Shown piece by piece: positions 3,701 through 61,950 of a stretch of DNA of 64,000 nt. The DNA is from Haliotis cracherodii (Eukaryota), in contig NW_027266343.1 in the NCBI RefSeq assembly GCF_022045235.1, positions 51,680,134 to 51,744,133 of the forward strand, written 5' to 3'. The notes beneath the pieces are model-generated. The model did no database searches. It worked only from the letters and a program-made list of their open reading frames with translations, and was not told the DNA's origin. A program made the position numbers and the translations under genes. How positions within the stretch are numbered: position 1 is the first letter of the stretch; every line of letters starts with the position of its first letter.

Positions 3701-4089
3701 ACGTCGCTTGTGAGGTAATAAACTAAGGGACAAAAGAAGCATACCGAGAATGTTTTTGTGTGCAAATGAAAATTGAATGAACAACGTTGTCAAATTTGAC
3801 AATACATATGTCTATTTAACCATCACTCATTCCTGCAACAGTTTGTAAAAAGTAATCTGTGGGTGGGTAATTTTGCGTAAAAATAAATTGTTTCAATGAA
3901 GCGTGGGGTAAGAAATTAACTTGCAACCACATGACCCCTAGCATGTTTGAAATGTTGTAAATTTGTGGCAACATTCCCAACAACTCTTGGAAACTAACAA
4001 AGAAATACGGAACACTTACACATATAGCGATACATTCTCGAACATACCGAGAGACTTTATATATTTTGTTTTGTTAAAACGAAATGCAT

Positions 4090-4371
4090 GAGTGAGTGAG
4101 TGAGTGAGTTTTAACGCCGCTTTTAACAGTATTCCAGTTATATCGAGGCGTGTCAGCATAATGTGGGCGGAAAGCACGAACTGATGCAGGTCTCAGACGA
4201 TTACCACTTCGGTGAAACCCACGAGCACCGGTATGGTGCTGACAAACCTAGAAACATAATCGGGGCGAACCGGGATTCGAACCCAACAATCATAGATTTC
4301 TGGCGTGCCCAAGGGACGCAACTCTGCACAGCGAATCGCGGCGCCTTAGATGACTGGGCCACCCGTGCCCC
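4090..4371 (-). mobile_element. tRNA-derived SINE, family A, full-length copy
   Basis: The reverse complement starts GGGGGCACGGGTGGCCCAGTCATCTAAGGCGC...GGGTTCGAATCCCGGTTCGCCCCG, which has a tRNA-like box A and box B. Then comes a body ...CTGGAATACTGTTAAAAGCGGCGTTAAAAC, then a (TCAC)n tail. The same unit recurs at 8879, 35053, 38643, 38901 and 43815. Confidence 0.8.
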
Positions 4372-4420
4372 CGAATGAATGAATGAACGAATGAATGAAT
4401 GAATGAATGAATGAATGAAT
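4372..4420. repeat. (GAAT)n microsatellite next to the SINE head
   Basis: gaatgaatgaacgaatgaatgaatgaatgaatgaatgaat. Confidence 0.9.
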
Positions 4421-8878: not shown

Positions 8879-9112
8879 AGGGTGGCCCAGTTGTCTAAGG
8901 CGCTGTGCAGAGTTGCACCCTTGGGCAGGCCAGAAACCTATGATTTGTGTTTCAAGGTTTGTCAGAACAATTACCGTGCTCGTGGGTTTCACCGAAGTGG
9001 TAAACATCTGAGATCTGCATCACTTCGTGCTTTCCTCCCATATTAAGCTGACACGCCGTTGATATAACTGGAATACTGTTAAAGCGGCGTTAAAACCTAA
9101 CTCACTCACTCA
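8879..9112 (+). mobile_element. tRNA-derived SINE family A copy in PCED1 intron 2
   Basis: ggtggcccagttgtctaaggcgc...ggtttcaccgaagtggtaaacatctgag...ctggaatactgttaaagcggcgttaaaacctaactcactcactcac. Confidence 0.8.
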
Positions 9113-9325
9113 CTTTACCATTGAAAAGCAAGGGATAATAAATAGCAATATAAAATTACACAAGTGTTGCGAAACAAGCACAGCTTCATGAAGGAATAAA
9201 GTTTTGAAATGTAAAATGACATGACATGAAATATCAACTGACCTCAAACATACTGATACCTATCTCTTCTTTGACAAGTTTTCCTGTTTTCTGCTTCTGA
9301 CCTTTCACCTCTCACCTTGATGCAG

Positions 9326-20210: not shown

Positions 20211-21974
20211 TAGAGAACACGTGCCTTCACCCTCCAATGGACCATGAGGTTTATATTCATGCAGATGGTCAGCACAGAGGCTCAGTACGTAGGGTTTGCT
20301 CTTTTAAAACATATCACTTCTGGCACACTTCACTTATTACTTCCCTACAAATTTGGATAGACCCTATCGCGGGGCAAGCTGTGTTACAATCCTTTATGCA
20401 AAAAAACCCTCTTTAAAAAAAGAATCGTTAAGGGTTACCTGTTGATTCTTAATGTAATAAAAAAAAATACATTTAGAGTAAGGCGACACTTTTTTTATTT
20501 CTTGGTTTACGGATTTCAAACTCATTTCAAAAGTGAGGCAGGCCAACTTAAAAAAAAGGAAAGCCTCACATTTTAAAAAACCCCAACTTTTTAAAAGTAA
20601 TTTTGTCCTAAAAAGTTAGGAAGGTATGAAAAGAATTATCCTGGCGTAACAAAAGTAAAATAACTAATTTTTTCAAGAACATTTTATTATATCCCTGGCA
20701 CTCAGCTTGTGCACAAATGGCAACATAACAATATTCATGTCATGGTTGAAAATGCATGATAGACGCTGCTATTTTGGCAGCATGGGCAACGTTTAACTCT
20801 TTCAACACCAGCCAACCAGAAGATTACTGCTGTGACACCAAGTTCCTCTATCTGCTGAAATTAACATCTTTGCTACTACATGTTTGGCCATACACTATTT
20901 GAAACGTCTAAAAAATCCTATCGTTTATAAATATGAAAGTTATGTGTATTACATTATTTAAATAATTCATTAACAACTAAATAAAGTTCGTTTTGAATAA
21001 AAAATAATGTAAGCTAAAACATTCATAACGTCCAGATTAAGGACCAATGATTTTTTCGGCAAATATAAGAATTCTTAAAATCCACTTACCTATTTTTTTT
21101 TTATTTTCATTTGTTTACGTTGTTGGAACATTATTTTAAAAGAATTACAAATAATATCTGTCATCACCCATTTCCCGATGATAGTGGCTGTCCGCTCACT
21201 AACATGAGGAAATACCTCCGTTTTCAAAGCTTCGTATGAATAACACATACGTCGAAGGCTGCCATGTCAGTATACATTAAAAAAACTTATATTGTTTCAC
21301 CGACAAAATCTGCTCTTGAATGAATACACGTTTGGTTCTGTAATTAATATGAATCAAATTCGGTTTCTTTTTTTTGGTAAATAGTAATCGTAGTTATAGC
21401 CTTACAAAGGTAGACCCGAGCCAGCACAACGGGGTGACATACACACGCCCTGGTTTTCAAGCTCGAGTTTCCATGTACGCTTCCAAAGGCCAAACTCGTA
21501 ACAGTAATGAGTGGCCATTTGTAAAAAGCATATTAAAAATCCGCACCCTCATGTATACTGCCTGGTTGCGAGTTTGACAATGAGAATATATCATTACCCG
21601 CAAGAAAATTCTTTTCACAAGGGGAAGTGCATAAAAAATGTATACACCTATTGTGGTACATGTAGTACACGCAGGAAACACTGGTGAAATATTAAATATT
21701 TAATGAGAAAGCGTTTCAGGAATAACATCCACTTTACAAAAGAATAATTGTAGGGATAAACTATTTTTGGAATCTGTTTGTTCTATATATAGCCATCTAG
21801 AAGGTAAAGGAAAATATATTTACTCGGAATTTGAAATTTCGGTGGGGTCAGATAAAATTTTATTAGAAAGTTTAAGAGTGCAAGTGTTCAAACAGGATAA
21901 GTGATCAAATGGAACCCGGAAAGTCTGCTCGCCATTAACACAATTTTGCTGAGATAAGATTTTTTTGTCATAAA

Positions 21975-23961: not shown

Positions 23962-24123
23962 GGGGGCGGTCGGGTAGCCTAGTGGATAAAGCGTTCGCTC
24001 GTCACGCCGAAGACCGGGTTCGATTCCCGACATGGGTACAATGTGTGAAGCCCAGTGGTGTCCCCCGCCGTGATATTGCTGGAATATTGTTAAAAGCGGC
24101 GTAAAACCAAACTCACTCACTCA
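23962..24123 (+). mobile_element. tRNA-derived SINE family C copy
   Basis: gggcggtcgggtagcctagtggataaagcgttcgctcgtcacgccgaagaccgggttcgattcccgacatgggtaca...tgctggaatattgttaaaagcggcgtaaaaccaaactcactcactcac. Confidence 0.8.
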
Positions 24124-24124
24124 C

Positions 24125-26879: not shown

Positions 26880-27130
26880 TGCTGTCAATTTTTTTATTTC
26901 AGTATTAATTTGGAAACGTAAACGAATTTTCACTTCACCTACGCGTTTCTTGTTTGGGAGAGAATATCTCGAAAATTCCCTTTCCTTTGTGTCTTGTACT
27001 TTAGAGAACTATGGTTTACAAGGGGTAACATGTTGCGAGCTTTTTTTCTAAAATGACAGCTGACGGTTTGTTGATGTCAGGATGACATATCACTTGCTGT
27101 GCTCCATCTGGTAGCAAGTAGAAAAAACTT
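26880..27130 (+). repeat. Direct repeat of about 250 bp, copy 1 (related copies at 27600-27870 and 47100-47250), ending in the conserved 70-bp hairpin motif
   Basis: gtttgggagagaatatctcgaaaattccctttcc...agctgacggtttgttgatgtcaggatgacatatcacttgctgtgctccatctggtagcaagtag. Confidence 0.7.
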
Positions 27131-27295
27131 TCCTAACATGTGGCAATTTCAATCAAGTTAGATATAATTAATACATGAACATATGCAGAATATTGATGAA
27201 ACACCATGCTACTTTTTATATAGTTGTTTTCCGCGCAGTGATACATCTGGATATTCATCAAATACCCAATTCCCTCCCACTGATTTACGACCGTC

Positions 27296-27599: not shown

Positions 27600-27870
27600 A
27601 AAGTCATCAAAACAATAATATTTAACAGTAACGTTTGTAAAATTCAATACTATTTAATTCAAATAAACTATATTTCCACAAACCACTTTACACATACGTT
27701 TTCTGTTTGGGTGATTATCTGTCGAAGATACCCCTTCCATTGAGTACTTTACTAAACAGATATTGATCACAAGAGGCAAAATGTTGACGTATCAGCCAGC
27801 TGACGGTTTGTTGGTGTCAGGATGACATATCTCTTTCTGTACACCATCTGGTAGCACGTGGAAACAATTA
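27600..27870 (+). repeat. Direct repeat of about 250 bp, copy 2
   Basis: gttttctgtttgggtgattatctgtcgaagataccccttcc...cagctgacggtttgttggtgtcaggatgacatatctctttctgtacaccatctggtagcacgtgg. Confidence 0.7.
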
Positions 27871-28449: not shown

Positions 28450-29600
28450 GCAATTACTGAAGTGTAGTGCACGTGTTTTTGTGTGAAAGTGATTTTGGAA
28501 GTAAAATCATTATTCGCGTTTTTTTAAAATTGCACGTGAACAATCGCGAGAAAAACTGCAAAGTTTATCTCTTAGAGATGCAGTATGACGAAAAAACACC
28601 AATGCCCAGGTTAACACAAGAACAGCGTGAGAGGGCTATAGGAATGCAACACAGTCGCATGTTGCAAGAACATTCAACTGCTCCCGTAATACCGTTGTCA
28701 ACTTGGTCCAGCGATTGGGAGTAACAGGTCGCACATCAGACAGGCCAAGAACAGACCCGTGAAGACCCATGAAGATCTCTACCTACGCTCATTGCACCTG
28801 CGTAATCGATTCCTACCTGTGACGTCATCGGCAGCGAATGCGTTGGGTCGTGTGGTCAGCAGGCAGACAATAGCCAGAAGACAAAGGGCAGCAGGGATCA
28901 GAGCCTATAGACCTTACAGAGGGCAACTGTTGACAAATGAACATCGTCGTCGAAGACTGCGATGGGCGCAAACAGTTAGGCGTTGGCAACGACGTGATTG
29001 GCAGCGTGTCCTCTTCACTGACGAGAGTAGGTTCTGTATGTTCCATTCTGATGGCAGACACCATGTGTATCGTCGTGGAGGCGAACTTACTGCTCGTTGT
29101 TGTGTCGAAGAGGTCGTACCCTTCGGTGGTATGAGTGTCATGGTGTGGGGTGGCATTTGTGCTGATGAGAGGACGCCATTGGTCATCATTAACGGTAACT
29201 TGAATGACGTACGCTACAGGGATGAGATTTTACGCGTTGTTGTGCTTCCATTTCTTCGTCAACAACCACAGGGTATTGTGTTCCAGTATGACAATGCTAG
29301 GCCACATACTGTTAACATTGTGCAAAACTTTCAACAATTCCCATGTGTTGCCCTGGCCAGTTCGTTCACCAGCCCTTAATCCCATAGAACACCTTTGGGA
29401 TTTCATGGACAGGCAAATTCGACGACGACAACAACCTCCAACCACCAGGAATGAACTCATCCAGGCCCTCCACGAAGAATGACGACGCATCCCACGTGAC
29501 GTCATCAGGCGATTGACAAATTCAGCTCGTAGGAGAGTGTTTGCCTGCCTTCAAGCCAATGGAGGTCACACACGCTACTAGGGTGACACAAACCCCATCT
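28450..29600 (+). mobile_element. Tc1-like DD34E transposase element, frame-shifted pseudogene
   Basis: The translation pieces are MPRLTQEQRERAIGM..., NCSRNTVVNLVQRLGVTGRTSDRPR..., ...QRRDWQRVLFTDESRFCMFHSDGRHHVYRRGGE...GGMSVMVWGGI...LNDVRYRDEIL...FQYDNARPHT... and ...LPWPVRSPALNPIEHLWDFMDRQIRRR.... The DDE signature is spread across three frames. Confidence 0.85.
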
Positions 29601-29829
29601 ATAGTCATTTTGTGCCGAGCAAGTCATTTGCACGTGTAATGAAAAACTGTTTTGCATACCCCACCTGAACATTACCAGCCATATTTAAGTCGCTTGTCAT
29701 GTTATTGTTATGACTTTCCGCCTAAGGTTGTGGTAAATATTCATGTTTACAATACAGTTTATTCTGATCGTTTATGTTTTGGTGTTGTTTCGCTATCGAA
29801 CTTCAAATAAGCTGCCAAGTTTCTTTTGG

Positions 29830-29935
29830 ACGGTAGTTTATTTTAGGGTATACTATATGAATTGCCAGTTGTGTAGGCGTGTATATATTAGGGTATGCCA
29901 CATAAATTGTCAGTGGTGTAGGAAGTTTGGGAAAC
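29830..29935. repeat. 45-bp satellite, short array
   Basis: gggtatactatatgaattgccagttgtgtaggcgtgtatatattagggtatgccacataaattgtcagtggtgtagg. Confidence 0.8.
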
Positions 29936-30469
29936 AGGTGGAAATCACTTGGAGCCAGGTCTGCCAAGTATGGAGGATGAGGAATTATATCGCACAACAG
30001 CCTTTGCAAGTCGAGAGGTGTGAGAAGAGGCATTGTCATGAAGTAGAACCCCTCGCCGCTTTTTTTGATAGAATCTCTCAGGCGATGAAGCAAATCAGCA
30101 TATTAGGCACCGGTAATCGTCTTATGACTTTCTAAGTAAACAACAAGGATCACATCACTGAGTACAGTGGCCCTGACTTTCTTCACTGATCTTGAAGACA
30201 TGAATTTCTTTAGTGCCGGAGAAGGGGAATGGTGTCATTCCATGTATTGACGTTTTGACTAGGGATATAAGTGGTAAACACATTTTTTGTCATCCGTTAC
30301 TAATGTCTTTTGAAGTTTGACAAAATCCTCCGCCATTAGCTCTTAATAGTCTCAGGCAATGTCAGTTCATTTTTCTTTAAGATCAGAGTTTAGAAACTTG
30401 GGCACCAAACGAGCAGGTATCTTATTCATCTGTAAGTGTTCGTGAATAAATGTTTCAATCGATCCATGG

Positions 30470-30720
30470 CTAAGACATGTGTTAAATTATTAGTGGTGTA
30501 GGCGTGTATATATTAGGGTATACTACATCAATTATCAGTGATGTAGGCGTGTATATATTGGAGTATACTATATCAATTATAAGCAGTGTAGGGGTGTATA
30601 TATTTGGGAATGCTTTATCAATTATCAGTGGTGTAGGGGTGTATATATTGGGGTATGGTATATCAATTATCAGTGGTGTAGGCGTGTATCTATTTTGGTA
30701 TGCTATATCAATTCTGTCTC
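30470..30720. repeat. 45-bp satellite array of about 5 units
   Basis: agtggtgtaggcgtgtatatattagggtatactacatcaattatc... repeated. Confidence 0.85.
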
Positions 30721-31969
30721 GCTGTTACGAGTCCTCGTAATCACGTGAGAAGCGCGAGAGGTCACGAGTGGTCATTGTGCGCTTGGTAACGAGAGGGAAA
30801 CACGAAATCGTGTTACTCGCGACAGTATTTCGAGATTGTTCAGATGTTACACACTTGTAACAGTAAAGTAACCTTTCGGGACCGTTTTCAATGTTGTGGT
30901 AAGGGCTGTCAACAAATGTGTGAATCACATGAGACGTTTTGCCGTCGTGAATGTCCGCCATTTTGTCTTCCGAGTTTGACTTCGCAACGGCGATTTTCCC
31001 AGTCAAGATGAACTCGGGAAAGAAAACTAACACTAAACGATCATCTGTTACAAAAACAGTAGATCCCAGTCACAAAGATGATGTCCAGACTGGACCGGTA
31101 CCGGGTACTAGCAAAACTTCTTACATGGAAATGACCCACGTTGGACTGTAACACTGTCACTGATTGTTCAACGTGGTCGAACACGACTGATATGTAGAAA
31201 AAGGTGTTAATTCTACAACAGTTAAAACAAATGAATGACAAAATGACTTTGATGATGCACCTAGTTGAGAATTCCCTGGATTACGAGTCTGCTCCAGATA
31301 GGATTGAAACAAGATAGAAGTATAGGAAAACTAAAGTCAAATCTCAAATTGATGATATCCTCGCGGATACTACCCCGACAGAAAAGGATATTGCTTCATC
31401 CAATTTTCTGCAAGGTTTTGAACAAGATTACGAACTGGGTGTTGAAACGGGGCCGAAAATAAGTGGAAAGTTGGCTAGCCTCATCAACACTGTGCGAGAG
31501 AAGAAAGTTTCCGAAGAGAAAATAAAGGCTGCGTTGGACAAATGCCAAATTTCAATGGTCCCGCCATTGGTAAATAAGGAAGTTTAGGACAACCAAGATT
31601 CCGAGATAGCGTTCCTGTCATATCTGTTGTGGAGATGTTTCTATCAATACAAAAGAAAGAGATTGACTTTAGCGCAGTTAGTCCAACTGACATGTTCAAG
31701 AAAACTTTTGATACGATAGCTCTTGTGATCTGTGCCAATTCGAAATTGAATCAGAGATGGCGTGATGTTATCAGACCAGCCCTCAGTAGGTGGTATTGAC
31801 AGTTATGTTCTCAATATCCTGGAAGGATAAGTATATTTATGCCTTTCATCCTTTCAATTGTATTGGGAGGTGTTTCCAAAAGATGAAAGATATTGTACAG
31901 AAGGAACATGTGTGGTTCCAATGAGGACAACTCAAGTGTGGCTTTCGAAGTTGACAGGCATGTTAATTG

Positions 31970-33119: not shown

Positions 33120-34350
33120 TTGTCTGGCCTATAAGCATTTATATATATTAGGGTATGTTGTATCAAATATCAGCGGTGTAGGTATGTATATATTAGGTTA
33201 TTCTATATCAATTATCAGGGGTGTAGGAATGTTTATATTATGGTATTCTATTTGAATTATCACTGATGTATGCATGTTTATATTAGGGTATCCTATGTCA
33301 AATATCAGGGGTGTAGGAATGTATATATTAGGGTATGCTATGCAGTGTTAGAGGCGTATATATAGTAGGGTATGCTATATTAATTATCTGTGGTGTGGGC
33401 GTGTATATATTGGGGTATGCTATGCAGTGTCGTAGGCGTATATATACATAAAGGTATGATATATCAATTATCAGTGGTATAGGCGTGTATATATTAGGGT
33501 ATGCTATATCAATTATCAGTGGTGTAGGCGGGTTTATAATTATGTATATATTAGGTTTTGTAATATCAAATATTAGGTGTGTAGGCATGTATATATTAGA
33601 GTATGCTATGCAGTGTTAGAGGCGTATATATAGTAGGGTATGCTATATCAATTATCTGTGGTGTGGGCGTGTATATATTGGGGTATGCTATGCAGTGTTG
33701 TAGGCGTATATATACATAAAGGTATGATATATCAATTATCAGTGGTATAGGCGTGTATATATTAGGGTATGCTATATCAATTATCAGTGGTGTAGGCGGG
33801 TATATAATTATGTATATATTAGGTTTTGTAATATCAAATATTAGGTTGTAGGCATATATATATTAGAGTATGCCATGCAGTGTTAGAGGCGTATATATAG
33901 TAGGGTATGCTATATCAATTATCAGTGGTGTAGGCGGGTATATAATTAAGTATATATTAGGTTTTGTAATATCAATTATTAGGTTTGTAGGCATGTATAT
34001 ATTAGGGTATGCTATGCAGTGTTGTAGGCGTATATATATTAGGAAATGCTATATCCATTATCAGTTGTGTTGACTTGAATACATTTATATATGCAATTTC
34101 AATTATCAGTTGTGTAGGCATGTATATATCACGTTATATAATAGGGTATGCTGTATCAATTATCAAGGGTGTAGGCGTGTAGATATTAGGCTGTCATATA
34201 TCAATTATTAGTGGTGTAGGCTTGTATATATTAGGGTATGCTAAATCAATTATATGCGGTGTAGGCGTGGCGTGTATATATTAGGGTATGCTATACCACT
34301 TATTAGTGGTGTAGGCGTGTCTATATTAGGGTATGCTATATCAATTATCA
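33120..34350. repeat. 45-bp satellite, main array of about 27 units, with partly diverged units
   Basis: The long run of ...attagggtatgctatatcaattatcagtggtgtaggcgtgtatat... is visible across 33120-34350. Confidence 0.9.
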
Positions 34351-34351
34351 G

Positions 34352-34543
34352 TCATTCCTTATGTCTTAAATTCATGACAGGTTCTTTGTCTCTTTGAAAC
34401 TGTAAACTCCTTCCCTCAAATTTCACATAGGTGTTATCAATAAGGAAGTCCAGCATTTCACATTTCGTTCTCATGACGTTTGCTTTCAATTGCACTTTTT
34501 CGAAACTTTGAACATAGAGATGTAAACATATCGTTGGTAACAA
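34352..34543 (-). mobile_element. Retroelement reverse-transcriptase fragment
   Basis: The minus-strand peptide ...KCEMLDFLIDNTYVKFEGRSLQFQ... has the same ETLDFLIDN..V.F motif as 52128-52319. I recall this as lying just upstream of the G.P.G..APLLADLFL RT motif in invertebrate retroelements. Confidence 0.45.
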
Positions 34544-35052
34544 CGTTTTGTAACAGATGCCCCATGGATCAAGAAATGCATTTTGGCGTCCGGATTTTCA
34601 CAATTATTTTCCTTCAAACACACATTCATTATCCCGAGGAAAAAGTTGGTTATTATCGAATAAGCAAGCATGTTTTACACACTTTATGTGATTATTGTGA
34701 GACCTTATATCTTCTGTTCTTGTCCCCCATTACAGGGTCATGCCGAAGGTCACAAAATTGCATGATAACAAATACAGGATGAAAATATTTGCATGAAAGA
34801 AAATAATTTTATTCGGACACGAAACATTTCAAAACTGGAATTTCAAATTAGGTCAATGGTTATTATTCAAAACCAACTTTCATATCGTGACTGAGTGTTT
34901 AGTAAGTACATAGCTGTTACATAGCAGCGTAGGTTTACCTTAAGTTAATTTGTCCGACCTTGTGAAACCCTGTTCGTGAACATCTGGTGCTGTCCCTCAT
35001 TTTTATATTATTTTCACGACCATTTCGTCATTTACACCAAATGGAATCTGGG

Positions 35053-35328
35053 GGCACGGGTGGCCAAGTCGTCTAAGGCGCCGCGATTCGCTGTGCAGAG
35101 TTGCGTCCCTTGGGTACGTCAGAAACCTATGATTGTGGGTTCGAATCCCGGTTCGCCCCGATTATGTTTCTAGATTTGTCAGCACCATACCCGTGCTCGT
35201 GGGTTTCACCGAAGTGGTAAACGTCTGAAACCTGCATCACTTCGGGCTTTCCTCCCACATTAAGCTGACACGCCGCGATATAACTGGAATACTGTTAAAA
35301 GCGGCGTAAAACCCAACTCACTCGCCAA
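35053..35328 (+). mobile_element. SINE family A copy with intact target-site duplication
   Basis: The full unit is flanked by CCAAATGGAATCTG (5') and CCAAAATGGAATCTG (3'). Confidence 0.85.
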
Positions 35329-37289
35329 AATGGAATCTGTTTCTCCAGAAAGTTGAGACTGATTATTCTCTGGCATTGACGTTTCATATTTGGTTCATAC
35401 TTACTCCCTCAACTCTAGGAATATATCAAGTCCTATATCAAGTAAACTATCAACATGAACTGTTAATGTTGTTAACAACATATTTTATTAATTACGTAAG
35501 TATTTCGGATTTCTACCTTCAATGGATAGCCCAGTAATAGACAGTAATAAAGAAAAGCCGCATTGATTTTGAAACTTGAAGAAAGTGACATAACATTGAC
35601 TTTGGAGTTAAAGTTCTGTGTAAACGTTGGCTATGTAAATTGTGAGAAGGTACGTTAGACACTACTTGTCAACATATCAACATAACTATGACGTTTTCAT
35701 TAGTTTGTTCCTTACAGACACTGTACTCACTAATGACAAAAGAAACGAACATGTTGTAAGTGTAGAAAGGTTTATTGACAAAACAATGCCCCTACACTTT
35801 TTTTGCATTCTGTAATTCTCGGATAACGTGGTTTCCGATATCAGCTCATCCTGAAAATATAAGGCGAATTCAGATTAGCAAATGAATTACTTCATTCACC
35901 CAAACGCACATACACATACAGGTACAGACAAAGTCATACACGAGATCGCAAACACCAAACTTTAAACGCTGGCATATAATTGACTCTAGTAGGATCCATC
36001 ACATGGACACGGAAGTTGTATGTCTGTTACTTGAATTTGTTCATACTTGAATAGTTTCATATCTTAAGTAATAACAATGCTTTGATAAAAGTTGACAATA
36101 TCTTGTAGATCAAATATCGCTGGAACCTTGAACTGTTTTGTGCAAATAATCACTCGCTAACAATTACTATACATTTAATTTGCCACTTTCAAACAAAGGA
36201 TGAACAAATAGCTTGTCCCATACAGTATACAAAAACACAGTTACACTGAAGGGAAGAAACGTCTTGGCTCAGGGCGTTTTACTGGAATCAACAAAACATA
36301 ACATACCGTCATCGAATCCCGCTCATGTGCAGCTGTGATATGAAAACCAGAAAATATGCATCTGAATTACAATTTAACGTTTAACGAAAGAGTCGGTAAA
36401 TTATATAAGCGGTCTTCTCCTCTAAACACATCTGACACATCTAATTGTATAAACTGATTTTTTTGATAACCCTTATTCGAAATTATTAAGTGGATATTTT
36501 TGACGGATATTAAGATTGGACTATTTACAATCACAATTCAGTCATACAAAGCAAGCTTTTAAGCTGTTTGGAAGTGCAATAGATGTAACAAGAAAGATTA
36601 TAATGTTCAACTCTATGTTCAATTAGTAATTAATTACTTGGTCGTTGTTGTTGCTGGATGTGTTATAAAGGAAATGCGTCAGTTACTAAGCCATTTTAAC
36701 AATTCATACCAGAATGTTGGATTACACGCAATAGACGGGCATGAAGAAGGAGTCGACATGGTGTATGTTAGCGATCCAACAAAAGTAAATGATGTAGCAT
36801 TGTAGATCTCAATATCCCTGAAAGAAGAAATCTCCATTTAGTCACCTTCAATCTACCCGATTGAAGAAACTGAGGAAAGTAGGTCAACATGTGGACTGTG
36901 CAAATGATACTGATTCCTCAAATTAATGTTATGTTATATAACTTATTCCAACGCTCAAAACAGTCAACAACAAATTGAATGAATGCACCCTGATAACCAA
37001 AGGCGCATCTTAGTTCGCCTTGGGGAGCTTATCGTGAGTACAATCGACTTAAACAATTGGATGCAGCTTCTCCAAGGTTCACCCTGACCTCTAAGATACA
37101 TGTATGTCCAACAGTTTGACAGTACATGCCAAGCCTGACACCAAGATGCCTCCTTCCCAGCTACCTCTCTCATATCCAATCTGAAATCTAGTTCATTACC
37201 AACGCAACCATACTGGTATGGTGAGGTTCCTTCTAAGAATATCTAGCAGTTACGTTCCAATCCAGAACGTCTGCCTCTGACTCAACGAA

Positions 37290-38050
37290 CTAAGACACCC
37301 ATCACCCCCTTTAACTAAAAGTATATCATGTGGCGTCCCTCACCTCCTTTAACTACAAGTATATCACGTGGCGTCCCTCACCCCCTTTAACTACAAGTAT
37401 ATCACGTGGCGTCCCTCACCCCCTTTAACTACAAGTATATCATGTGGCGTCCCTCACCCCCTTTAACTACAAGTATATCATGTGACGTCCCTCACCCCCT
37501 TTAACTACAAGTATATCATGTGGCGTCCCTCACCCCCTTTAACTACAAGTATATCATGTGGCGTCCCTCACCCCCTTTAACTACAAGTATATCATGTGGC
37601 GTCCCTCACCCCCTTTAACTACAAGTATATCATGTGGCGTCCCTCACTCCCTTTAACTACAAGTATATCTTCTGGCGTCTCTCAACCCCCTTTAACTACA
37701 AGTATATCATGTGGCGTCCCTCACCCCCTTTAACTACAAGTATGTCTTGTGGCGTCCCTCACCCCTTTTAACTACAAGTATATCTTGTGGCGTCCCTCAC
37801 CCCCTTTAACTACAAGTATATCATGTGGCGTCCATCACCCCCTTTAACTAAAAGTATATCACGTGGCGTCCCTCACCCCCTTTAACTACAAGTATATCAT
37901 GTGGCGTCCCTCACCCCCTTTAACTACAAGTTTATCTTGTGGCGTCCCTTACCCCCTTTAACTACAAGTATATCATGTGGCGTCCCTTACCCCTTTTAAC
38001 TACAAGTATATCATGTGGCGTCCCTCACCCCCTTTAACTACAAGTATAAC
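37290..38050. repeat. Satellite with a 38-bp unit (CCCCCTTTAACTACAAGTATATCATGTGGCGTCCCTCA), about 20 copies
   Basis: A period of 38 was measured between successive CCCCCTTTAA starts (37381 and 37419). Confidence 0.9.
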
Positions 38051-38417
38051 ATGTGGCTACCATCAGCAAAAGATCCAGATATAAAAAGGCACAGGAACAG
38101 GATGCAAGGCCGCATGTTCAGACTTAAAACACAATTCAATTTTTATATAATATACTTACTTTCAGTTAATTATTTTTCACAAATTATGGGATAGAAACCA
38201 ACTCTGACCGAAGAACTCACTCCTATCTTTTAATTATCAAGTCACATGATGTAAAAAGGGCTCCGCACAATGTACTGATATTTACAGTGTGCAAAGACTT
38301 AAAATTCTCCACAAGACTGACATTGGTTCAACATTTACAGATGAATTACCAACAAATGCAAATCTAAAGAATAATAAGATGCCAACAATGCATTTTTCTT
38401 GTTTTGAAGTAAGAAAG

Positions 38418-38476: not shown

Positions 38477-38637
38477 TCACGCATCATCTTTGTTTGCGAC
38501 GTAGATGAGGGAATCACAGGGGCTGACTTTAATTGAACCACAGCAATCGTCGTTTGGCTTTTTCAGCTGTTTGTATATTTCCTCTGCAGGATCATAGACG
38601 TACAGGCCACCGGGTTCATCACAAAACACTATTCTTC
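38477..38637 (-). CDS. Novel secreted protein gene, exon 6 (terminal): (G)RIVFCDEPGGLYVYDPAEEIYKQLKKPNDDCCGSIKVSPCDSLIYVANKDDA*
   Basis: The acceptor is ctctcatacag|ga with phase 1 in. The frame is open to the TGA and an AATAAA follows downstream. Confidence 0.6.
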
Positions 38638-38642
38638 CTGTA

Positions 38643-38900
38643 TGAGAGAGTGAGTGAGTGAGTGAAATGGATTTAGCACCGCTAAAAACAGTATTCCAGC
38701 TATATCACGGCGTGTCACCTTGTTATTGGGAGAAAGCCCGAAGTGATGCAGGTCTAAGACGTTTATCACTTTGGTGAAACCCATGAGCAAGGGTATGGTG
38801 CTGACAAACATTATACATTGAAACATAATCAGAGCGGACCGGGATTCGAACTCAATTTTATAGCATGCCTAAGGGACACTACTCTGCACCGTGTCCCCTG
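38643..38900 (-). mobile_element. SINE family A copy 1 of a tandem dimer, with an internal deletion in the head. Its tail abuts the exon-6 acceptor
   Basis: The + strand reads gtgagtgagtgagtgaaatgg...cagtattccagctatatcacggcgtgtcacc...ccgggattcgaactc...ctgcaccgtgtcccctgtgtatcagag. Confidence 0.75.
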
Positions 38901-39200
38901 TGTATCAGAGTGAGTGAGTGAGTTGGGTTTTACGCCGCTTTCAACAGTATTCAAGTTATATCGCGGCATGTCAGCTTAATGTGGGAGGAAAGCCCGAAGT
39001 GATGCAGGTCTCAGACGTTTACCACATCAGTAAAACTCACGAGCACGGGGGTGGTGCTAACGAACCTAGAAACATAATCGGGGCGAACAGGGATTCGAAC
39101 CCATAATCATAGGTTTCTGGCCTGCTGAGGGGACGCAACTCTGCACAGCGAATCGCTGCGCCTTTGACGACTTGGACACCCGTGCCACCTCCCTGTGTAT
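38901..39200 (-). mobile_element. SINE family A copy 2 of the tandem dimer, full-length
   Basis: tgagtgagtgagtgagttgggttttacgccgctttcaacagtattcaagttatatcgcggcatgtcagc...gggattcgaacccataatcataggtttctgg...cttggacacccgtgccacctccctgtgtatcagag. The same 13-bp flank CTGTGTATCAGAG follows both copies. Confidence 0.8.
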
Positions 39201-39906
39201 CAGAGAAATGTAGAATAAATATATGAACCTGATTCACCTCAAAACTCTATTCTACCTGTATCAGATACATATATAGTAGCGTGTCTCCTGTAACCGTGTG
39301 TGGGTTACCAGGGTCAAGTTTGAGCAGCAATATGCTGGTTAGCATAGTACAGAACAGTCAATTAACACAATACAACTCACATATAATTTTGCTATGCTAT
39401 GTAATTGATTTAAATACATACTAGGCAAATATAAATGTGTATACGTACACACCTATCATATATATTCATGTAAATAATTACGTTGTTTTGCACTATTTAC
39501 AATCTCAAATATATCAACACGAGTGGATAAAAGTGGAAAAATTCCAAGGCTTGCCGTGGAAATTTGCCACTGTTATCATCGAGTGTTGATATATTTGATA
39601 TCAAAAGACAAGAGGGATTTTATTTATCATCCAACACCATTTTTCCAACTTTTTCAATTTGTAGACAGTAATTAGCAGTGTCTTCAGTGTAAAAAGTACT
39701 GCTAACAGCTTCAGTAGGAGAGCCATTAGTGATGTTATTTGATTGTGACGTCATGGTAAACAATAACCAGTGAAGTCACAATGGTCTGCAAAGCATTGTG
39801 ATGTAATTTCATTGCAGCGCTATCTACAGATCTCACCCAAGCGATATCTCCTGTGGGAGCAAGTTTTGGATGATAAAATATAATCAATTGTATTAATTTC
39901 ACCTAC

Positions 39907-40949: not shown

Positions 40950-41019
40950 CTGGAGGTCCCGACAACAAATCAATGACAAATTAAGACCTATAAGGATTAA
41001 AAGCGTCAGCAATCGTCAC

Positions 41020-41880
41020 ATGAAGGGATGTATACGTGCATATATCTCATGTAAAAGTTTAACAGGGTAGTTGTAAGAATATGACAGGGTGTATACGTGC
41101 ATATATCTCATGTAAAAGTTTAACAGGGTAGTTGTAAGAATATGACAGGATGTATACGTGCATAGATCTCATGTAAAAGTTTAACAGGGTAGTTGTAAGA
41201 ATATGACAGGGTGTATACGTGCACAGATCTCATGTAAAAGTTTAACAGGGTAGTTGTAAGAATATGACAGGGTGTATACGTGCACAGATCTCATGTAAAA
41301 GTTTAACAGGGTAGTTGTAAGAATATGACAGGGTGTATACGTGCATAGATCTCATGTAAAAGTTTAACAGGGTAGTTGTAAGAATATGACAGGGTGTATA
41401 CGTGCACAGATCTCATGTAAAAGTTTAACAGGGTAGTTGTAAGAATATGACAGGGTGTATACGTGCATATATCTCATGTAAAAGTTTAACAGGGTAGTTG
41501 TAAGAATATGAGAGGGTGTATACGTGCATATATCTCATGTAAAAGTTTAACAGGATAGTTGTAAGAATATGACAGGGTGTATACGTGCACAGATCTCATG
41601 TAAAAGTTTAACAGGGTAGTTGTAAGAATATGACAGGGTGTATACGTGCATATATCTCATGTAAAAGTTTAACAGGGTAGTTGTAAGAATATGACAGGGT
41701 GTATACGTGCACAGATCTCATGTAAAAGTTTAACAGGGTAGTTGTAAGAATATGACAGGGTGTATACGTGCATATATCTCATGTAAAAGTTTAACAGGGT
41801 AGTTGTAAGAATATGACAGGGTGTATACGTGCATATATCTCATGTAAAAGTTTAACAGGATAGTTGTAAGAATATGACAG
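41020..41880. repeat. Satellite with a 61-bp unit (GTGTATACGTGCATATATCTCATGTAAAAGTTTAACAGGGTAGTTGTAAGAATATGACAGG), about 14 copies, inside intron 3 of the secreted-protein gene
   Basis: A period of 61 was measured (41031 to 41092). Copies alternate between the variants catatatc and cacagatc. Confidence 0.9.
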
Positions 41881-42191
41881 GATAAAAGCATTATCTTTCC
41901 AATTACATGTCAGAATTAGAAGTGAATAATTTCATACGATGTTACAGTTGATTGGGACAAAATGTCATTTCCTAAGATCATTAGGTGCCAGAAAGGAGGA
42001 GGGGAGATCCGAGGAGTACGTTTCCATATTAAATTTCCAAGTGTTAGAAAGACTCGACACATTGTCATACACTCAAATCATAAGTGGCTTTGACATGGGG
42101 ATGCATTGCAGGTCCGAACAGATGCATTTTCTCAACAAACAAATTGATAAGAGATTTTGAACGAATGTACATGAGACGGTCATTAACGTAC

Positions 42192-43814: not shown

Positions 43815-44048
43815 TGAGTGAGTGAGTGAGTGAGTTGAGTTTAACGCCTCTTTTAACGTTATTCCAGTTATTTCACGGCGTGTCAGCTTAGTGCGGGAGG
43901 AAAGCCCGAAATGATGCAGGTCTCAAACCTAGAAACATAATCGGGGCGAACCGGGATTCGAACCCACAATCATAGGTTTCTGGCGTGCCCAAGGGACATA
44001 ACTCTGCACAGCGACTCGCGGCGCCTTAGACGACTGGGCCACCCGTGC
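43815..44048 (-). mobile_element. SINE family A copy with an internal deletion, in intron 1 of the secreted-protein gene
   Basis: gtgagtgagtgagtgagttgagtttaacgcctcttttaacgttattccagttatttcacggcgtgtcagcttagtgcgggaggaaagcccgaaatgatgcaggtctcaaacctagaaacataatcggggcgaaccgggattcgaaccc...gactgggccacccgtgca. Confidence 0.8.
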
Positions 44049-44847: not shown

Positions 44848-46450
44848 CTAATTATTCAGTACACATTTATTTTTATCTGCAAGATTAACATTGTTATACT
44901 GTAGTACTTTGTATTGTATTGCTAGTTCTCTTTTAAATATTCTAAAAAGGCAGTCGGTTTCAGTTACTTTACATTTGTACACAATATACTTTGATAGCAG
45001 TAGTAAATAATTCATCAAAGTACACTCCTCTGTGCCTCCTTCTATACCATACAATACAATATCTCTGTAAGTATTATAAATCTGATTATGTACATTAACT
45101 TTCGCCCATTTAAAGAATTCTATCCAAAAGGGTAATACATTTGAACAGTGAAACATGTAATGTCTAACAGTTTCTATACTACCACAATGTTCACATACAT
45201 TACTTTCTTTAATGTTAATTCTATTTAAATACTGATTACAAGGAATGATTGAGTGTAGAATTTTCAACTGCAGTTGCTTATACTTGTTTCCAATTCTCAT
45301 GTCCTTTACAAATATTTTCTATGTAAAAACATCTTCAATAGCAACTTTGAACACATTATAGATTGTATTATACCAAAATTTACTTTTACAAGGTGTGTCA
45401 GCAAGTCTGATTCCGTTAACTTCAGGATGTGGTTCAATTTTTATAGGACCCACGTTTTGGAAACTAAACATGTTCTGCCCTATTGCCTTCCTAATAGCAT
45501 TGATATACCTACTATATTTTCTTGGTGTTATGTCAATTCCATATTTCCTAGCAATTGTTTCGCGTTGAAAGAAATCCCCATTCTTTTTAAGTAATGCCTT
45601 ATATAAATAATGCCCGCATCTTTCCATTTCGCATCAAATATACTTTTTCGATTGATTAAGATATTTTTGTTATTCCAAATTATTTCATTATAGATGTCTT
45701 CTTCTCTTTGTGCAAAAAAGGTCTCCCACAAGGATACAATTTCTTTATAGAATAATGAGATTTTTAATTTATTTTAATTTGGAGACTTGGAAGTTACAGT
45801 TAAGTAAGAATTCAAGCGAACCAATGCTTTTAAAATAATGTGCAATAGGAAGTGTCCAGATCTTCTTAGAGAAATACTTGCCGAGCCAAACTAGTTTTAA
45901 CGCTGCGTTAAAGGTCCCAAAATCTAGACCATTAATGCTACCTTCTCCTTGTTTTTGGATTAACCGATTTCTTGATAATTTTTATGACTTGCTGTTCCAA
46001 ATAAAGGTAAACAGTTCTCTTTTGATTATTTTGATTATTTTTGGTGAAAAGGAAACACAACTTGCTTGATGGACTAACCTAGAAATTCCTTCAGATTTGC
46101 TTAAAAGACAACGTCCATATATTGTTAAATTTCTACTTTTCCAGATTTTAAAACGTCTTTTAATATTTTCTTAAGGTCTTTCAATATTTTCCTCGTGACA
46201 CACCGTATCAATAGCATCTATCATTACGCCAAGAAATTTATATCTATAAATTTTCTTTATGCCAAAAGGAGGAATAAAATTGTCTTTTCTAAGTGACATT
46301 ACGACTGATTTATCTAAATTCAGTTTTAAGCCGCTGTAGGCCCTTTGATTTAAATAAAATTCCAGGGTTTTCTTGACCGATTTTTTATCTCTCAGAATGA
46401 GAGCCGAATAATCTGCATAATATATTCCTTCTATTTCTTTTTCTCCAAAT
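44848..46450 (-). mobile_element. Non-LTR retrotransposon (LINE) ORF2 3' fragment: RT C-terminal part plus zf-RVT-like domain, 5'-truncated, in the sense orientation within intron 1 of the secreted-protein gene
   Basis: Minus-strand peptides: ...GIYYADYSALILRDKKSVKKTLEFYLNQRAYSGLKLNLDKSVVMSLRKD... (RT motifs near YxDD and N.DKS); ...FWYNTIYNVFKVAIEDVF...; and ...NVCEHCGSIETVRHYMFHCSNVLPFW... (Cys/His zinc-binding motif typical of RT-associated zinc fingers). Confidence 0.65.
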
Positions 46451-46593
46451 ATTAGGCCATTAATGTTTTGATCTTTTGACTTAGAAACCCAACCCTCCCA
46501 CTGCATCTCCCCAGCACACGAACACGCTTCCCACAGACAGAAAAGGTTTAATAAGTTGCATATAACCAAAGCAAAGCTCATTATGCTACTTAC

Positions 46594-47552: not shown

Positions 47553-47720
47553 CCGGGCGGTCGGGTAGCCTAGTGGTTAAAGCGTTAGCTCGTCACGCCG
47601 AAGACCCGGGGTCGATTCCCGACATGGGTACAATGTGTGAAGCCCATTCCTGGTGTCCCCCGCCATGATATTGCTGCAATATTGCTAAAAGCGGCGTAAA
47701 ACCTCACTCACCCACTCACT
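47553..47720 (+). mobile_element. SINE family C copy with target-site duplication
   Basis: ccgggcggtcgggtagcctagtggttaaagcgttagctcgtcacgccgaagacccggggtcgattcccgacatgggtaca...gcggcgtaaaacctcactcacccactcactcc, flanked by CCATATTCAT on both sides. Confidence 0.85.
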
Positions 47721-47929
47721 CCCCATATTCATCAGAAATCTCAGCAAAATGCAGAGTCGAGTGTGCGATTCCGGCTATATCATGAACATGTGAATATGAA
47801 TCACTATCAAATAGGGATGATACCAGGTGTTCGCGAAAAGGGGATCGTATCCTACCCCACCGCTGTTACCTATCACAAACACATGCAAAGGCTTTACTGA
47901 ACCGATGCGTCAAATTTACAAATGTCCTC

Positions 47930-49520: not shown

Positions 49521-50454
49521 CAATAACCCACGAGGTACAAGTGATTACGGAAAATATGTCACGAGTGAAATTAATGTTTAAGTTGCGAGCTTTAGCTTTA
49601 GTCATGATTAATCACTCGTACCGAGTGGGCTATTCTATTTATCACCCATAATCATAATGAAGACGTTTCAAGGAAAACAAACTGTCGCCGATCAAGAATC
49701 AGCCCTTTTGTATCAATCCGCGTTTGAAAAAAACAATGTCCACTCACTCCAATCGCATTACTCACTTAACGTGTTGTTACGCGTGACAAATATAGTTATG
49801 TTAAAAAACTATAAAGATCACCTTATTGCAGTTGTATTTCTGTCTGAATCACAGAGTGTACACTATCTAGCATTGATCAAGAAGACAAGTTTCCAAAAAG
49901 GTTCATCGGGTTTTTTAATCATGGCTTGCTTTAACAAGATCTCGTCACTGACAGACAGCCGCCGCCGTGCATCAGCATCGAATTTGAACCGTCTGATTTG
50001 CATGCCGAAATGATAAATTTGCAAAGAATAATGTTTAGTTGCACCTTTCCTGTGTCATTAACGCTCATGGTGTCTGGACGTCAGTCAGCCTGCATACTAC
50101 TCAGTGCCATTCTGTGCTGACGTCGCGGTTACAAAAACGTATACATTGTATACTAAACCGCAAAAGAAACGTTACTCCAAGTAACATTGTATGAAAAGTT
50201 GTCATTTAAATATCTGGGAATTTTTTGTCAAAGTTTCTAAAATTTAGTATTACCTTGTCCGGAAAAATGAAATTTGATGATAAAAATGCAAAGCAGATGA
50301 CAATAAAACCGATCGCCCAAACGCATCACGGCAACGTCCATGGTATTCCGATGCACGTTCCGTGTAAATTGAAATGCACATGCGTTCCCCCATTTCTTGC
50401 CCTTTTAAAATCCACCCAGATCGGATAACATTCAATCGATATTGAATTGCTACA

Positions 50455-50924
50455 ATATGCCAAGATTGTCAAGAAATCAGCGACACCAAGCCCTTGAACG
50501 ATTGCAAGCTGGACAAACCGCAAGTTGCCAATGCATTTCAAGTCCACGTAAGGACCATACACAGGCTCCAGCAACTGTACCAGACCGCCAACACTACAGA
50601 TGCCCGACCACGTAGTGGAAGACCAAGGGTCACCACCCGACGTCAGACTGTGCGACAGCATCTTCAAGTTCGCTTTGTTACTGCTGCGTAACTGCTCGAC
50701 AGACCATGGAGACACACCAGCGACACATTAGTGCGGATACCGTGCGTCGACGATTGACATGCAGACATCTCCACTGTCACAGGCCAAACCGAGGACCAAT
50801 TCTGACACCATGTCATCGCCGGGACCGTCTTCAGTGGGCAACACAGCACCAGCATTGGCGCCAGCAGCAGTGGAGAAGAGTCCTCTTCTCAGAAGAGAGC
50901 CATTACTGTATCTCAACAGCAGAT

Positions 50925-50968
<44 letters not shown>

Positions 50969-51500
50969 AAGAGAGAGTCTGGCGACGCCGTGGGGAACGT
51001 TATTCGGATGCTTGTGTTGTTGAGAGAGACTCGCGGGGTGGTCTGAGCATCGTGGTGTGGGGTGGAATTGAACTTGAACAGAGGGTCGGCCCTGTGGTCT
51101 TCCAGAACATCGGTCTAGGGAGAGGCAATGGTGTCCCAGCAGCTCGGTACATTGACCAAGCCTTGAGACCACACGCCATACCTCATTTGGCACGTCGCTG
51201 CAACCACGAGTTTCAGCATGATAACGCATGTGCCCACATTGCGAGAGCAACAAGATACTTCATCCAGCTGAATGGCATCAGAACCATGCTGTGGCCTGCC
51301 CTCAGTCCCGATTTAATTCCCATTGAGAATCTGTGGGACGAGATTCAAAGACGACTGAATGACGTCCGACCAAGGCCGACAACTACAGCTGAACTGCGTC
51401 ATTGGTTCCTCAGAGTGTGGGCTCAAGTGCCTATGGCCTTTATCAACCACCTCATCCATTCCATGTATCGACGTTGCACTGCACACAAGATACTGACTTT
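50455..51500 (+). mobile_element. Tc1-like transposase element, pseudogene, disrupted by frameshifts and an internal (GA)n microsatellite
   Basis: MPRLSRNQRHQALERLQAGQTA... (HTH), ...WRRVLFSEESHYCISTADGRER... (first D region), ...GGLSIVVWGGIELEQR...FQHDNACAHIARATRYF...WPALSPDLIPIENLWDEIQRRL... (DDE region). Confidence 0.85.
50925..50985. repeat. (GA)n microsatellite of about 30 units inside the Tc1 coding region
   Basis: gagagagagagagagagagagagagagagagagagagagcaagagagag. Confidence 0.95.
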
Positions 51501-52127
51501 TGTGATGCCATTTTCTCAGAGATTAGTGTTGTGTTTCACTTCAAGAACATTTGACACTTTAATTTCAACCTTGATGATCAGCTATGCCAAGTTTCATCTT
51601 TTTAATATGTCTCAAAGTATGTTTACAGTGTTTGGACAAATAAGGTTTCTCATATATCTATCCATGGTGACGTTTCTTTTGCGGTTCAGTATATAAACAA
51701 GTCTCACAACGTTCTTATTTCTTCATACAACGTTACAACGAAATGGCTAGACATGCTACGTGACGAGGGTCTGACACATTCATAACAGTATCCGGAAATA
51801 CATCGTGGCAGCATGCTGTGGCTCTAAGGATGATCTGAATAAAACCTACAAAAGCAATTTTGTACGACTCCGAATATATCATGCCCATGTGTTTATGACT
51901 CACTATAGTGATGATACCAGGTGTTCGCGTATCATACCTCACCGGTGGCACCTGTAAAACGGAAGTCAACCATCTTGTCATATGGTCATGTGGAAAGATT
52001 TTTATGACTCTGAATCGTTATGCACAGATCTAAATATGAAACATACGAGACAGCCTCACTGGTCTCCTTATTGTTAGTTGGTACGTTAGTGAAAGGGTAT
52101 TGTCCGTTTGACTGCTTTTGAACGATA

Positions 52128-60974: not shown

Positions 60975-61950
60975 CAACATGCCAAGATTAACAGAAGTGC
61001 AACGAAACAACGTCATAGGCCGCTTGCAGGCAGGGGAATCCCGATCAGCTGTAGCCAGGGATTTCAAGGTAGCTCCCAGCACCATCACAAGGCTATGGGA
61101 TCGGTTTCAACAGCTTGGGTCAACACGTGATCGGCAAAGGTCGGGACGGCCAAGTGTAACCACCCTCACCCAGATCGGTACATCCGACTGCTCCACCTAC
61201 GTGAAAGGACGACCACAGCCACCTCAACCGCATCCCAAATACCCGGACTGCGCAGAATCTCCGACCGTACGAAACCGTTTAAGAGCAGCAGGTCTACGAG
61301 CAAGACGTCATGTTCGACGCGTCATATTGAGTCGACAACATCGGTGTCGTCAATAGAGGGCATGGTCTCAACTACGATGGAGAGATGTCTGGTTTAGCAA
61401 CGAATAAAGATTTCTCCTCCGTCGAGGGGATGGAAGAGCACGGGTCTGCATACGTCGGGGAAAATGTTACGCCAGCATACAGGAAGTGGACAGGTTTGGT
61501 GGGGGTAGCGTAATGATGTGGGCGGCTATCTCTCATCATGGCATCATGACAGGTTTGGTCCATATCCAGGGCAATCGTAAGGCTCAACTATATATCAACG
61601 AAATTCTCCTACCACACGTCCTCACCAACTGGAGCCAACGGCAACGGTGTTTTCTAGCAGGACAACGCTCGACCGCATACAGCATGGATCACAAGAGCCT
61701 GTCTACACAACAAGAACGTTGATGTTCTCCCCTGGCCCTCCAGATCCCCGGATTTGAACCCGATAGAGCACCTGTGAGATGAATTGGATAGACGGCTACG
61801 CCGACGTCAACCACAATCCCAGACGCTGCAGCAGTTGGCTTTTGCGTTGCAGGCCGAGTGGGCTACCATTCCCAGGATGTGATTCGCATAATCGTGTCTT
61901 CCGTGGGCAGGAGATGTAAGCCCGCTATCGATTCCAACGGGGGACGTACG
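60975..61950 (+). mobile_element. Tc1-like transposase element, frame-shifted pseudogene
   Basis: MPRLTEVQRNNVIGRLQAGESRSAVARDFKVAPSTITRLWDRFQQLGSTRDRQRSGRP... (HTH), ...GGGSVMMWAAISHHG...YINEIL..., ...LPWPSRSPDLNPIEHL.DELDRRLRRR... in different frames. Confidence 0.85.

Follow-up and report, generated by a model that had tools for sequence, protein, structure and literature searches.

We examined a 64,000-nucleotide stretch of Haliotis cracherodii DNA (contig NW_027266343.1; hereafter the window, whose own numbering is used throughout), which is abalone-type with 39% G+C, and within it a minus-strand gene whose fifth intron ends in two copies of one short interspersed element (SINE). Read along the minus strand, the order is a flank, SINE copy 2, an identical flank, SINE copy 1, (CACT)4, CTCTCATACAG, and then GAAGAAT, the first bases of exon 6. 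A sequence-only reading of the same DNA had described these parts in this order, and all of them are present as described; it explained the pair as a tandem duplication of the SINE together with its flank. We argue here that it is very probable instead that two independent insertions of the SINE at one target produced the pair, and that the tail of the older copy now serves the acceptor of exon 6.

Host gene and exon structure

The gene model was built by fitting open minus-strand segments with GT-AG junctions to a homologous protein, P0001, and comprises eight coding exons that encode 372 amino acids in an intact 372-codon frame. The spliced fit places exon 1 at 46804-46594, exon 2 at 43216-43103, exon 3 at 42422-42192, exon 4 at 40943-40775, and exon 5 at 40025-39907, all on the minus strand, as are the exons that follow; exon 5 ends ...GAAGATG before gtaggt, and the next intron is in phase 1. 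Homology fits likewise place exon 6 (38637-38481; 157 nt, starting GAAGAATAG..., with donor GC then GTGAGT) and exon 7 (36817-36710; DIEIYNATSFTFVGSLTYTMSTPSSCPSIACNPTF, with a good acceptor, tttcttctttcag then G). Exon 8, at 36332-36323, is a terminal mini-exon whose coding part is 10 nt long and supplies CCT and the stop. It can be aligned to the mini-exons of three paralogs from Haliotis rufescens that we used for comparison, L001 (LOC124117311), L002 (LOC124117298), and the more distant L003 (LOC124151354); the H. rufescens mini-exons carry CCA-stop where the window has CCT-stop.

At the junction of exons 5 and 6, GAAGATG is followed by gtaggt ... catacag and then GAAGAATAGTG, which translates as LEDG|RIVFC with no indel relative to the homologs. 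The exon-6 acceptor proposed earlier, with its GAAGAAT start, is upheld by this fit, and only the start of the feature drawn around the SINE pair was misplaced, since position 38629 falls 8 nt inside an exon that starts at 38637. Exon 6 had also been called the last exon. It is the sixth of eight and not terminal, because the homologs continue in what the window encodes as exons 7 and 8 and because the TGA at 38479-38477 sits within the exon-6 donor (GATGATGC then GTGAGT). All seven homologs run on past exon 6 as ...NK(N/D)DA-DIEIYN.TS...CPS(I/F)..., encoded from 36817, and the C-terminal continuation, NKDDA|DIEIYNATS...CPSIAC...CC(A/T)-stop, is encoded at 36817-36710 and 36332-36323.

The relatives of the protein are only uncharacterized secreted cysteine-rich proteins of 374-382 amino acids from H. 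rufescens and H. cracherodii (seven homologs in the set, four of which carry the name Haliotis cracherodii). The best identity is 66% over the full length, and was 56-58% for a partial first query. Because Pfam returned for the host protein only an SGL match that stayed below threshold (16.8 bits, with 26.3 required; E=0.005), the family stays uncharacterized. Scans of metagenome contigs for the locus, one by exact pattern and one by protein, gave no match in either case. Downstream of LOC124117298 in L002, at 34111-37292 on the minus strand of that locus, lies an inverted, apparently partial paralog with matches to exons 2-5 only, which indicates a putative tandem or inverted gene cluster there in H. 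rufescens.

These properties bear on whether the gene is functional at all. Were it an unexpressed or decaying paralog, no acceptor would be in use, and the arrangement upstream of exon 6 would be neutral debris in a dead intron. No identical protein was found among 5.8 billion, the best full-length match is the 66% just given, the family is tandemly duplicated and fast-evolving, and the partial inverted paralog at L002 has no exon 6-7 match within the fetched locus; these points would favor decay. Nevertheless, we consider decay quite unlikely. All eight exons of the window gene are open and in frame with GT-AG borders, the N terminus resembles a signal peptide, the conserved cysteines are present, and the length of 372 amino acids is close to that of the homologs. 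Moreover, annotated H. rufescens models use the same SINE-adjacent acceptor (see below).

A dispersed SINE with an (ACTC)n tail

The SINE upstream of exon 6 belongs to a dispersed family. Four further long copies lie in the window, two complete (35050-35323 and 4085-4372) and two with internal gaps (43816-44048 and 8901-9114), bringing the number of long copies to six in 64 kb, and at least seven more are found in the three H. rufescens loci (106 kb). Copies from the window and from H. rufescens are 84-95% identical to one another, and the window also holds several shorter matches, most of which cover roughly the last 60 nt of the 3' end. The consensus is about 285 nt long and ends in (ACTC)n, a tail that all copies have. 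It contains an exact box B, GGTTCGAATCC, about 77 nt from a box A-like motif, TGGCCCAGTCG, which fits 10 of the 11 positions of the box A consensus.

Target-site duplications of 15, 12-15, 13, 12, and 9 bp surround five of the copies (CTCTGATACACAGGG; CCAAA(A)TGGAATCTG; CTATCTGTCTGGT; CTATGTGCCAGG; CTTGTATAG), and four of these five start with CT immediately after the ...ACTCA of the tail. Such CT-initial targets would fit a mechanism in which the tail pairs with the nicked target, which then serves as primer for reverse transcription. Short and dispersed, with target-site duplications and a simple-repeat tail, the element reads as a non-autonomous non-LTR (long terminal repeat) retrotransposon that would depend on a long interspersed element (LINE). 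ARAGORN and Rfam at its gathering threshold, both run on the window, found no tRNA for the SINE head, and a literature text search with strings of 15-21 nt from the SINE gave no matches.

tRNA-related SINEs with simple-repeat tails are known from molluscs as the MESC/MetaSINE families, which include Hdi/HalSINE1 of Haliotis (PMC4758252, PMC4824008). In Bathymodiolus the MESC element has a (CACT)n tail, whereas the Haliotis MESC SINE is described with a (CACCT)n end and, internally, a (CA)n microsatellite (PMC4758252). Our element resembles these families in its abalone host, its length of about 285 bp, the motifs of its head (one like box A, the other an exact box B), its short tandem-repeat tail, and a 3' module that is common to a second SINE family. 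We nevertheless rejected the Haliotis MESC/MetaSINE terminus as a match, since the element has a (CACT)n/(ACTC)n tail and lacks both the (CACCT)n end and the internal (CA)n; the comparison covered the described tail and internal repeat.

The second SINE family is represented in the window at 47555-47721 and 24030-24124, both on the plus strand, and has a classical tRNA-like head, TAGCCTAGTGG ... GGGTCGATTCCC. Because its last 60 nt or so and its (ACTC)n tail are in common with the SINE at the acceptor, the sequences suggest that the two families may have had a common LINE partner.

Independence and order of the two insertions

Copy 2 (39190-38911, minus strand) is full length at 280 nt and the younger of the two, with the box A-like motif, the exact box B, and an (ACTC)n tail. 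It is enclosed by its target-site duplication, CTCTGATACACAGGG, at 39205-39191 on the 5' side and at 38910-38896 on the 3' side. The flank had been described as 13 bp present after both copies. The plus-strand 13-mer, CTGTGTATCAGAG, does occur at 38898 and 39193 and nowhere else in the 64 kb, but the identical stretch is really 15 bp long. A search allowing up to three mismatches added a single, unrelated match in the window. The last GGG of CTCTGATACACAGGG at 39205-39191 could alternatively be the first bases of the SINE head.

The old copy 1 (38898-38649, minus strand) starts GGGGACACGG and ends in (CACT)4 at 38664-38649. About 34 nt of its head, box A among them, are missing, and it carries a diagnostic 7-nt insertion. 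Because the SINE at the acceptor of L002 is full length, this gap is an internal head deletion, and a 5'-truncated copy 1 is ruled out by the same counterpart. Between copy 1 and exon 6 stands CTCTCATACAG (38648-38638), the host-derived 3' target-site copy of copy 1, which ends in the acceptor AG at 38639-38638. It matches an upstream motif, CTCTGATACA, at 9 of 10 positions, and L001 has TTCTGATACAG in the equivalent place.

The three H. rufescens paralogs place the two copies in time. Starting within copy 1, running across exon 6, and reaching into intron 6, window positions 38889-37302 are collinear with L001 22624-24191 and L002 27889-29439 at about 78% identity. Both loci have the same SINE directly upstream of the exon-6 acceptor (...CCCATTTCACTCACTCACTTTCTGATACAG then GAAGAATTG), and their NCBI models use the SINE-adjacent acceptor (GRIVFCESSGAVW in P0001, GRIVFCETSGAVL in P0004); copy 2 is absent from both. 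L003 has no SINE at this acceptor, its 3' splice region reading TCATTGCCTAACGGTTCATACATTCAATTTACATTTCTCTAAAACAG then GTAGAATAGTG. Empty, single, and double occupancy states are thus all kept among the paralogs. The comparison of related introns, from which the sequence-only reading expected dates for the insertions, could be made in this form, with paralogs in place of orthologs, and it marks copy 1 as old.

The head-to-tail order, the identical 15-bp flank after each copy, and the spacing of about 295 bp are what one would see if a single SINE and its acceptor-like flank had been tandemly duplicated by unequal crossing-over or replication slippage. The two copies, however, are just 76.9% identical, yet their flanks match at 15 of 15 positions, and a unit that has diverged by 23% is not expected to retain its flank intact. 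In an alignment of eleven SINE copies, copy 2 is 91.6% identical to the family consensus and 89.9% and 87% identical to dispersed copies (the former being that at 35050-35323), in each case more than to copy 1, which itself is 83.2% identical to the consensus. At 17 alignment columns copy 1 and the H. rufescens acceptor-site copies are derived and copy 2 has the consensus state, against none at which copies 1 and 2 have a derived state in common; the private changes of copy 1, among them the 7-nt insertion and the head deletion, are absent from copy 2. In addition, the paralogs carry copy 1 alone, and the flank has the length of the target-site duplications of this SINE family. Tandem duplication of SINE plus flank, as first proposed, is therefore extremely unlikely, and these comparisons show that the two copies arose by independent insertion. 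From its length and position, which match those of the family's other duplications, the repeated flank is the target-site duplication of copy 2. We also rejected a dimeric, Alu-like SINE that moves as a unit, as the duplication encloses copy 2 alone and all other copies are monomers.

Upstream of the pair lies what the SINE-free state had next to the exon. The segment at 39229-39193 (minus strand; GGTTCATATATTTATTCTACATTTCTCTGATACACAG), a displaced ancestral pyrimidine tract with an acceptor-like end, aligns with the annotated 3' splice region of L003 (TTCATACATTCAATTTACATTTCTCTAAAACAG then GT) and with L002. Because of this alignment, the more distant of two upstream decoy acceptors described below (decoy 2) sits on the ancestral exon-6 pyrimidine tract, severed from its exon by copy 1. 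The 9 nt that bear the CCTAAC branch-site-like motif of L003 are missing from the window.

In L001 and L002, a 64-nt stretch stands between the remnant of the old acceptor and the SINE head (L002 27783-27846; L001 22553-22598). Of 29 nt, 28 (25 of them consecutive) match the window at about 30046-30018, and most of the length can be matched if gaps are allowed; the stretch is sense-oriented, reading ...VLLFHDNASSHT, and is deleted at the acceptor in the window. We take it to be a fragment of a mariner-type transposase, a label given from the motifs HDNA...PH and PPYSPDLAPSD; a Pfam search of the short reading frame at 29803-30093 gave no match. Two simpler accounts of the left end of copy 1 were rejected on this basis: TCTCACACYTGG is not its target-site duplication, as that stretch is mariner-derived, and the motif that now abuts copy 1 cannot be taken simply for its 5' target-site copy, as the 64-nt fragment intervenes in L001 and L002. 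Elsewhere in the window, Tc1/mariner-type transposase remnants, recognized by motif only (HDNA..., PPYLADLAPSDFHLF, DNACAH), lie at 29743-30700, 50442-51696, and 60979-61722.

The two-insertion reading can be drawn as three events in which one LINE-dependent SINE family would have retrotransposed twice into one target, CTCTGATACA..., located right at the 3' end of intron 5. First, before the window gene split from the two H. rufescens paralogs, a full-length SINE would have inserted 0-2 nt upstream of the exon-6 boundary, its 5' end joined to the 64-nt mariner-type fragment; the simplest reading would be one insertion of mariner fragment plus SINE, bracketed by CTCTGATACA(G). Its target-site duplication would have placed CTCTGATACAG then G beside exon 6, and the original region of branch site and pyrimidine tract was displaced by more than 300 nt upstream. 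Since that time the acceptor would have been served by the (CACT)n of the SINE tail and the 11-nt target-site copy. Second, the window lineage lost the mariner fragment by deletion, together with about 34 nt of the SINE head and hence box A. Third, the younger SINE would have been primed on the regenerated upstream copy of the target and would have left a perfect target-site duplication of 12-15 bp that spans the deletion junction. It is this span that puts copy 2 last, and because both insertions have the same left boundary, CTCTGATACA, the regenerated target was hit twice. Priming may have proceeded through microhomology between tail and target, and the mariner-SINE chimera may have formed by template switching during reverse transcription. 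If the flank is indeed a target-site duplication, the site before insertion of copy 2 would be expected to read ...ATTTCTCTGATACACAGGGGACACGG....

The upstream region holds one more copy of acceptor-like sequence. The sequence-only reading counted two such copies upstream of the real site, both of which are there, and missed this further one at 39265-39227 (minus strand; TCTGATACAG then GTAGAATAGAGTTTTGAGGTGAATCAGGT), which agrees at 32 of 39 nt with the real acceptor and the 28 nt that open exon 6. Its local alignment score is 25, against 13 for the next best in the window, and none of 2000 shuffles reached 25. It also occurs in L002 at 27703-27740, and it precedes the displaced ancestral tract. 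Having retained GTAGAATAG, as found in the L003 exon, it appears on that account to be an older duplication across the splice site; it could have arisen by tandem duplication there or as a long target-site duplication.

The present acceptor and its decoys

Upstream of the AG of exon 6 the sequence reads ttttagcggtgctaaatccatttcactcactcactcactctctcatacAG then G, with 75% pyrimidines at -23 to -4 and an AG-free zone of 42 nt. CTCAC motifs, spelled by each unit of the tail and conforming to yUnAy, offer candidate branch adenosines at -14, -18, -22, and -26, and GCTAAAT lies at about -37. Host sequence makes up only the last 11 nt before the exon; further upstream, there is SINE for about 250 nt. 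Given this sequence and the usual branch-site distances, the SINE tail would work as the pyrimidine tract of exon 6, and the branch point probably falls within the last 40 nt of the SINE. The earlier claim that the tail supplies the tract holds insofar as the tail does lie upstream and the tract of the SINE-free L003 differs, but it overlooks that the final 11 nt are host target-site sequence. The parts of the acceptor that derive from the element are the tract and possibly the branch site only. We therefore rejected exonization of a transposable element as a description of the locus: exon 6 is ancestral and conserved in the SINE-free paralog, and the AG belongs to host target-site sequence. 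That a SINE in this place risks disrupting the splice site was overstated for copy 1, which has been kept beside an intact exon in at least three paralogs.

Two further AG dinucleotides upstream could act as decoys, as had been noted, although they lie at 38899-38898 and 39194-39193 (minus strand) rather than at 38900 and 39205. Decoy 1 follows the tail of copy 2 and is a near-replica of the real site (aaaacccaactcactcactcactctgatacacAG then G), with 65% pyrimidines at -23 to -4 and an AG-free zone of 38 nt; for decoy 2 the corresponding values are 70% and 34 nt. Both may be by-products of target-site duplication meeting the G-rich 5' end of the SINE, and the G of a decoy may be no more than the opening G of the SINE head following the A of the target site.

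Partial use of the decoys is possible from their sequence. If they were appreciably used, in competition with the real acceptor, SINE-containing isoforms with premature stops would lower the output of the gene. The resemblance of decoy 1 to the real site, the ancestral tract retained at decoy 2, and the AG-free zones and yUnAy motifs at both would favor such use. Oppositely, translation would stop after 9 codons from decoy 1 or 28 codons from decoy 2, the resulting exons of 417 or 712 nt, compared with 157 nt, would be disfavored by exon definition, and the 9 nt with the ancestral CCTAAC-like branch motif are missing upstream of decoy 2. On balance, appreciable decoy use seems rather unlikely, and the AG at 38639-38638 is supported by the fit to homologous proteins as the acceptor in use.

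Several observations count against the reading of two insertions at one target with the older tail now in service. The use of the acceptor rests on homology and the intact 372-codon frame, and by simple measures the decoys are comparable with the real site (65-70% pyrimidines, yUnAy motifs). Both target-site duplications can be delimited only to within 2-3 nt, since the tail closes with CTC and the head opens with a run of G. Rfam at E<=10 on the SINE copies returned chance matches only and no tRNA. The compared loci, 75-79% identical at the DNA level, are paralogs and not orthologs, so copy 2 is undatable against species splits. Finally, template switching is one of several possible routes by which the mariner fragment could have been joined to the SINE.

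Tract donation to acceptors, branch-site displacement, and repeated target use are each already known. First, transposable elements can provide 3' splice-site signals, as when the poly-U tract of an antisense Alu becomes the polypyrimidine tract in Alu exonization; Sorek 2002 and Lev-Maor 2003 reportedly give examples. As in those cases, a SINE-borne pyrimidine run directly upstream of an AG acts here as an acceptor tract. In contrast to them, no new exon has formed, and it is the tract, and probably the branch site, of an existing constitutive exon that has been replaced; the SINE is in sense orientation with a (CACT)n tail instead of antisense poly-A, and the AG is host target-site sequence. 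Second, SINEs inserted shortly before a 3' splice site can displace the branch point and cause exon skipping, as in the canine HCRTR2 narcolepsy allele. There, too, a SINE of about 250-350 bp separates the exon from its original branch site and tract, but in the abalone genes the insertion has been tolerated and retained in at least three paralogs, presumably through the tail's own pyrimidines and CTCAC motifs. Third, non-LTR retroelements that reuse one target site give tandem or nested SINE pairs. The younger insertion here likewise struck, on our reading, a target regenerated by the first, with both duplications beginning CTCTGATACA; the difference is that the target consists of the last bases of an intron, so that each insertion adds acceptor-like sequence. 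What is particular to the present locus is that a sense tail replaces the signals of a constitutive exon and that the empty, single, and double states persist side by side among paralogs.

A more far-reaching idea is that the (ACTC)n-tailed SINE prefers targets that resemble intron ends (pyrimidine-rich, CT-initial, and often ending in AG/GG), its tail carrying a ready-made branch site and tract. In that case the SINE could insert at 3' splice sites while sparing the gene, systematically rebuilding acceptors across abalone genomes, and the double insertion at exon 6 would be a symptom of this preference. We regard such a preference as very unlikely. The locus leaves general knowledge of SINEs and splicing unchanged and is a clean but ordinary instance of splice-site remodeling. 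It is of use as a well-resolved natural case in which a SINE replaced the upstream signals of an acceptor and persisted through gene duplication, as a possible test case for how the molluscan spliceosome chooses among three near-identical acceptors in series, and for the presence or absence of copy 2, which could be a dating marker within Haliotis.

Repeats of other kinds occupy the introns of the gene. Upstream of the acceptor region in intron 5, a 60-nt stretch (window 39282-39341) is 95% identical to L001 22475-22534 and forms part of a unit of about 97 nt. The window has this unit once, L001 has one and a half copies (1.5), and L002 has four in tandem (26890-27290). Intron 6 contains a tandem array at 37298-38056 whose period is about 38 or 76 nt; intron 6 of L001 has it too, and in L002 it is much expanded (28670-31530). 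Intron 1 holds, at 44851-46593 on the minus strand, a degenerate element bearing a reverse transcriptase (weak RVT_1 match, E=0.0075), and the SINE copy at 44048-43816 lies about 800 nt downstream of it. In intron 3, also on the minus strand, a minisatellite at about 41000-41950 consists of roughly 15 units of about 61 nt; one and the same open peptide can be read in each of the three frames, shifted by 61 nt. L001 has a single related segment of 45 nt (20898-20945).

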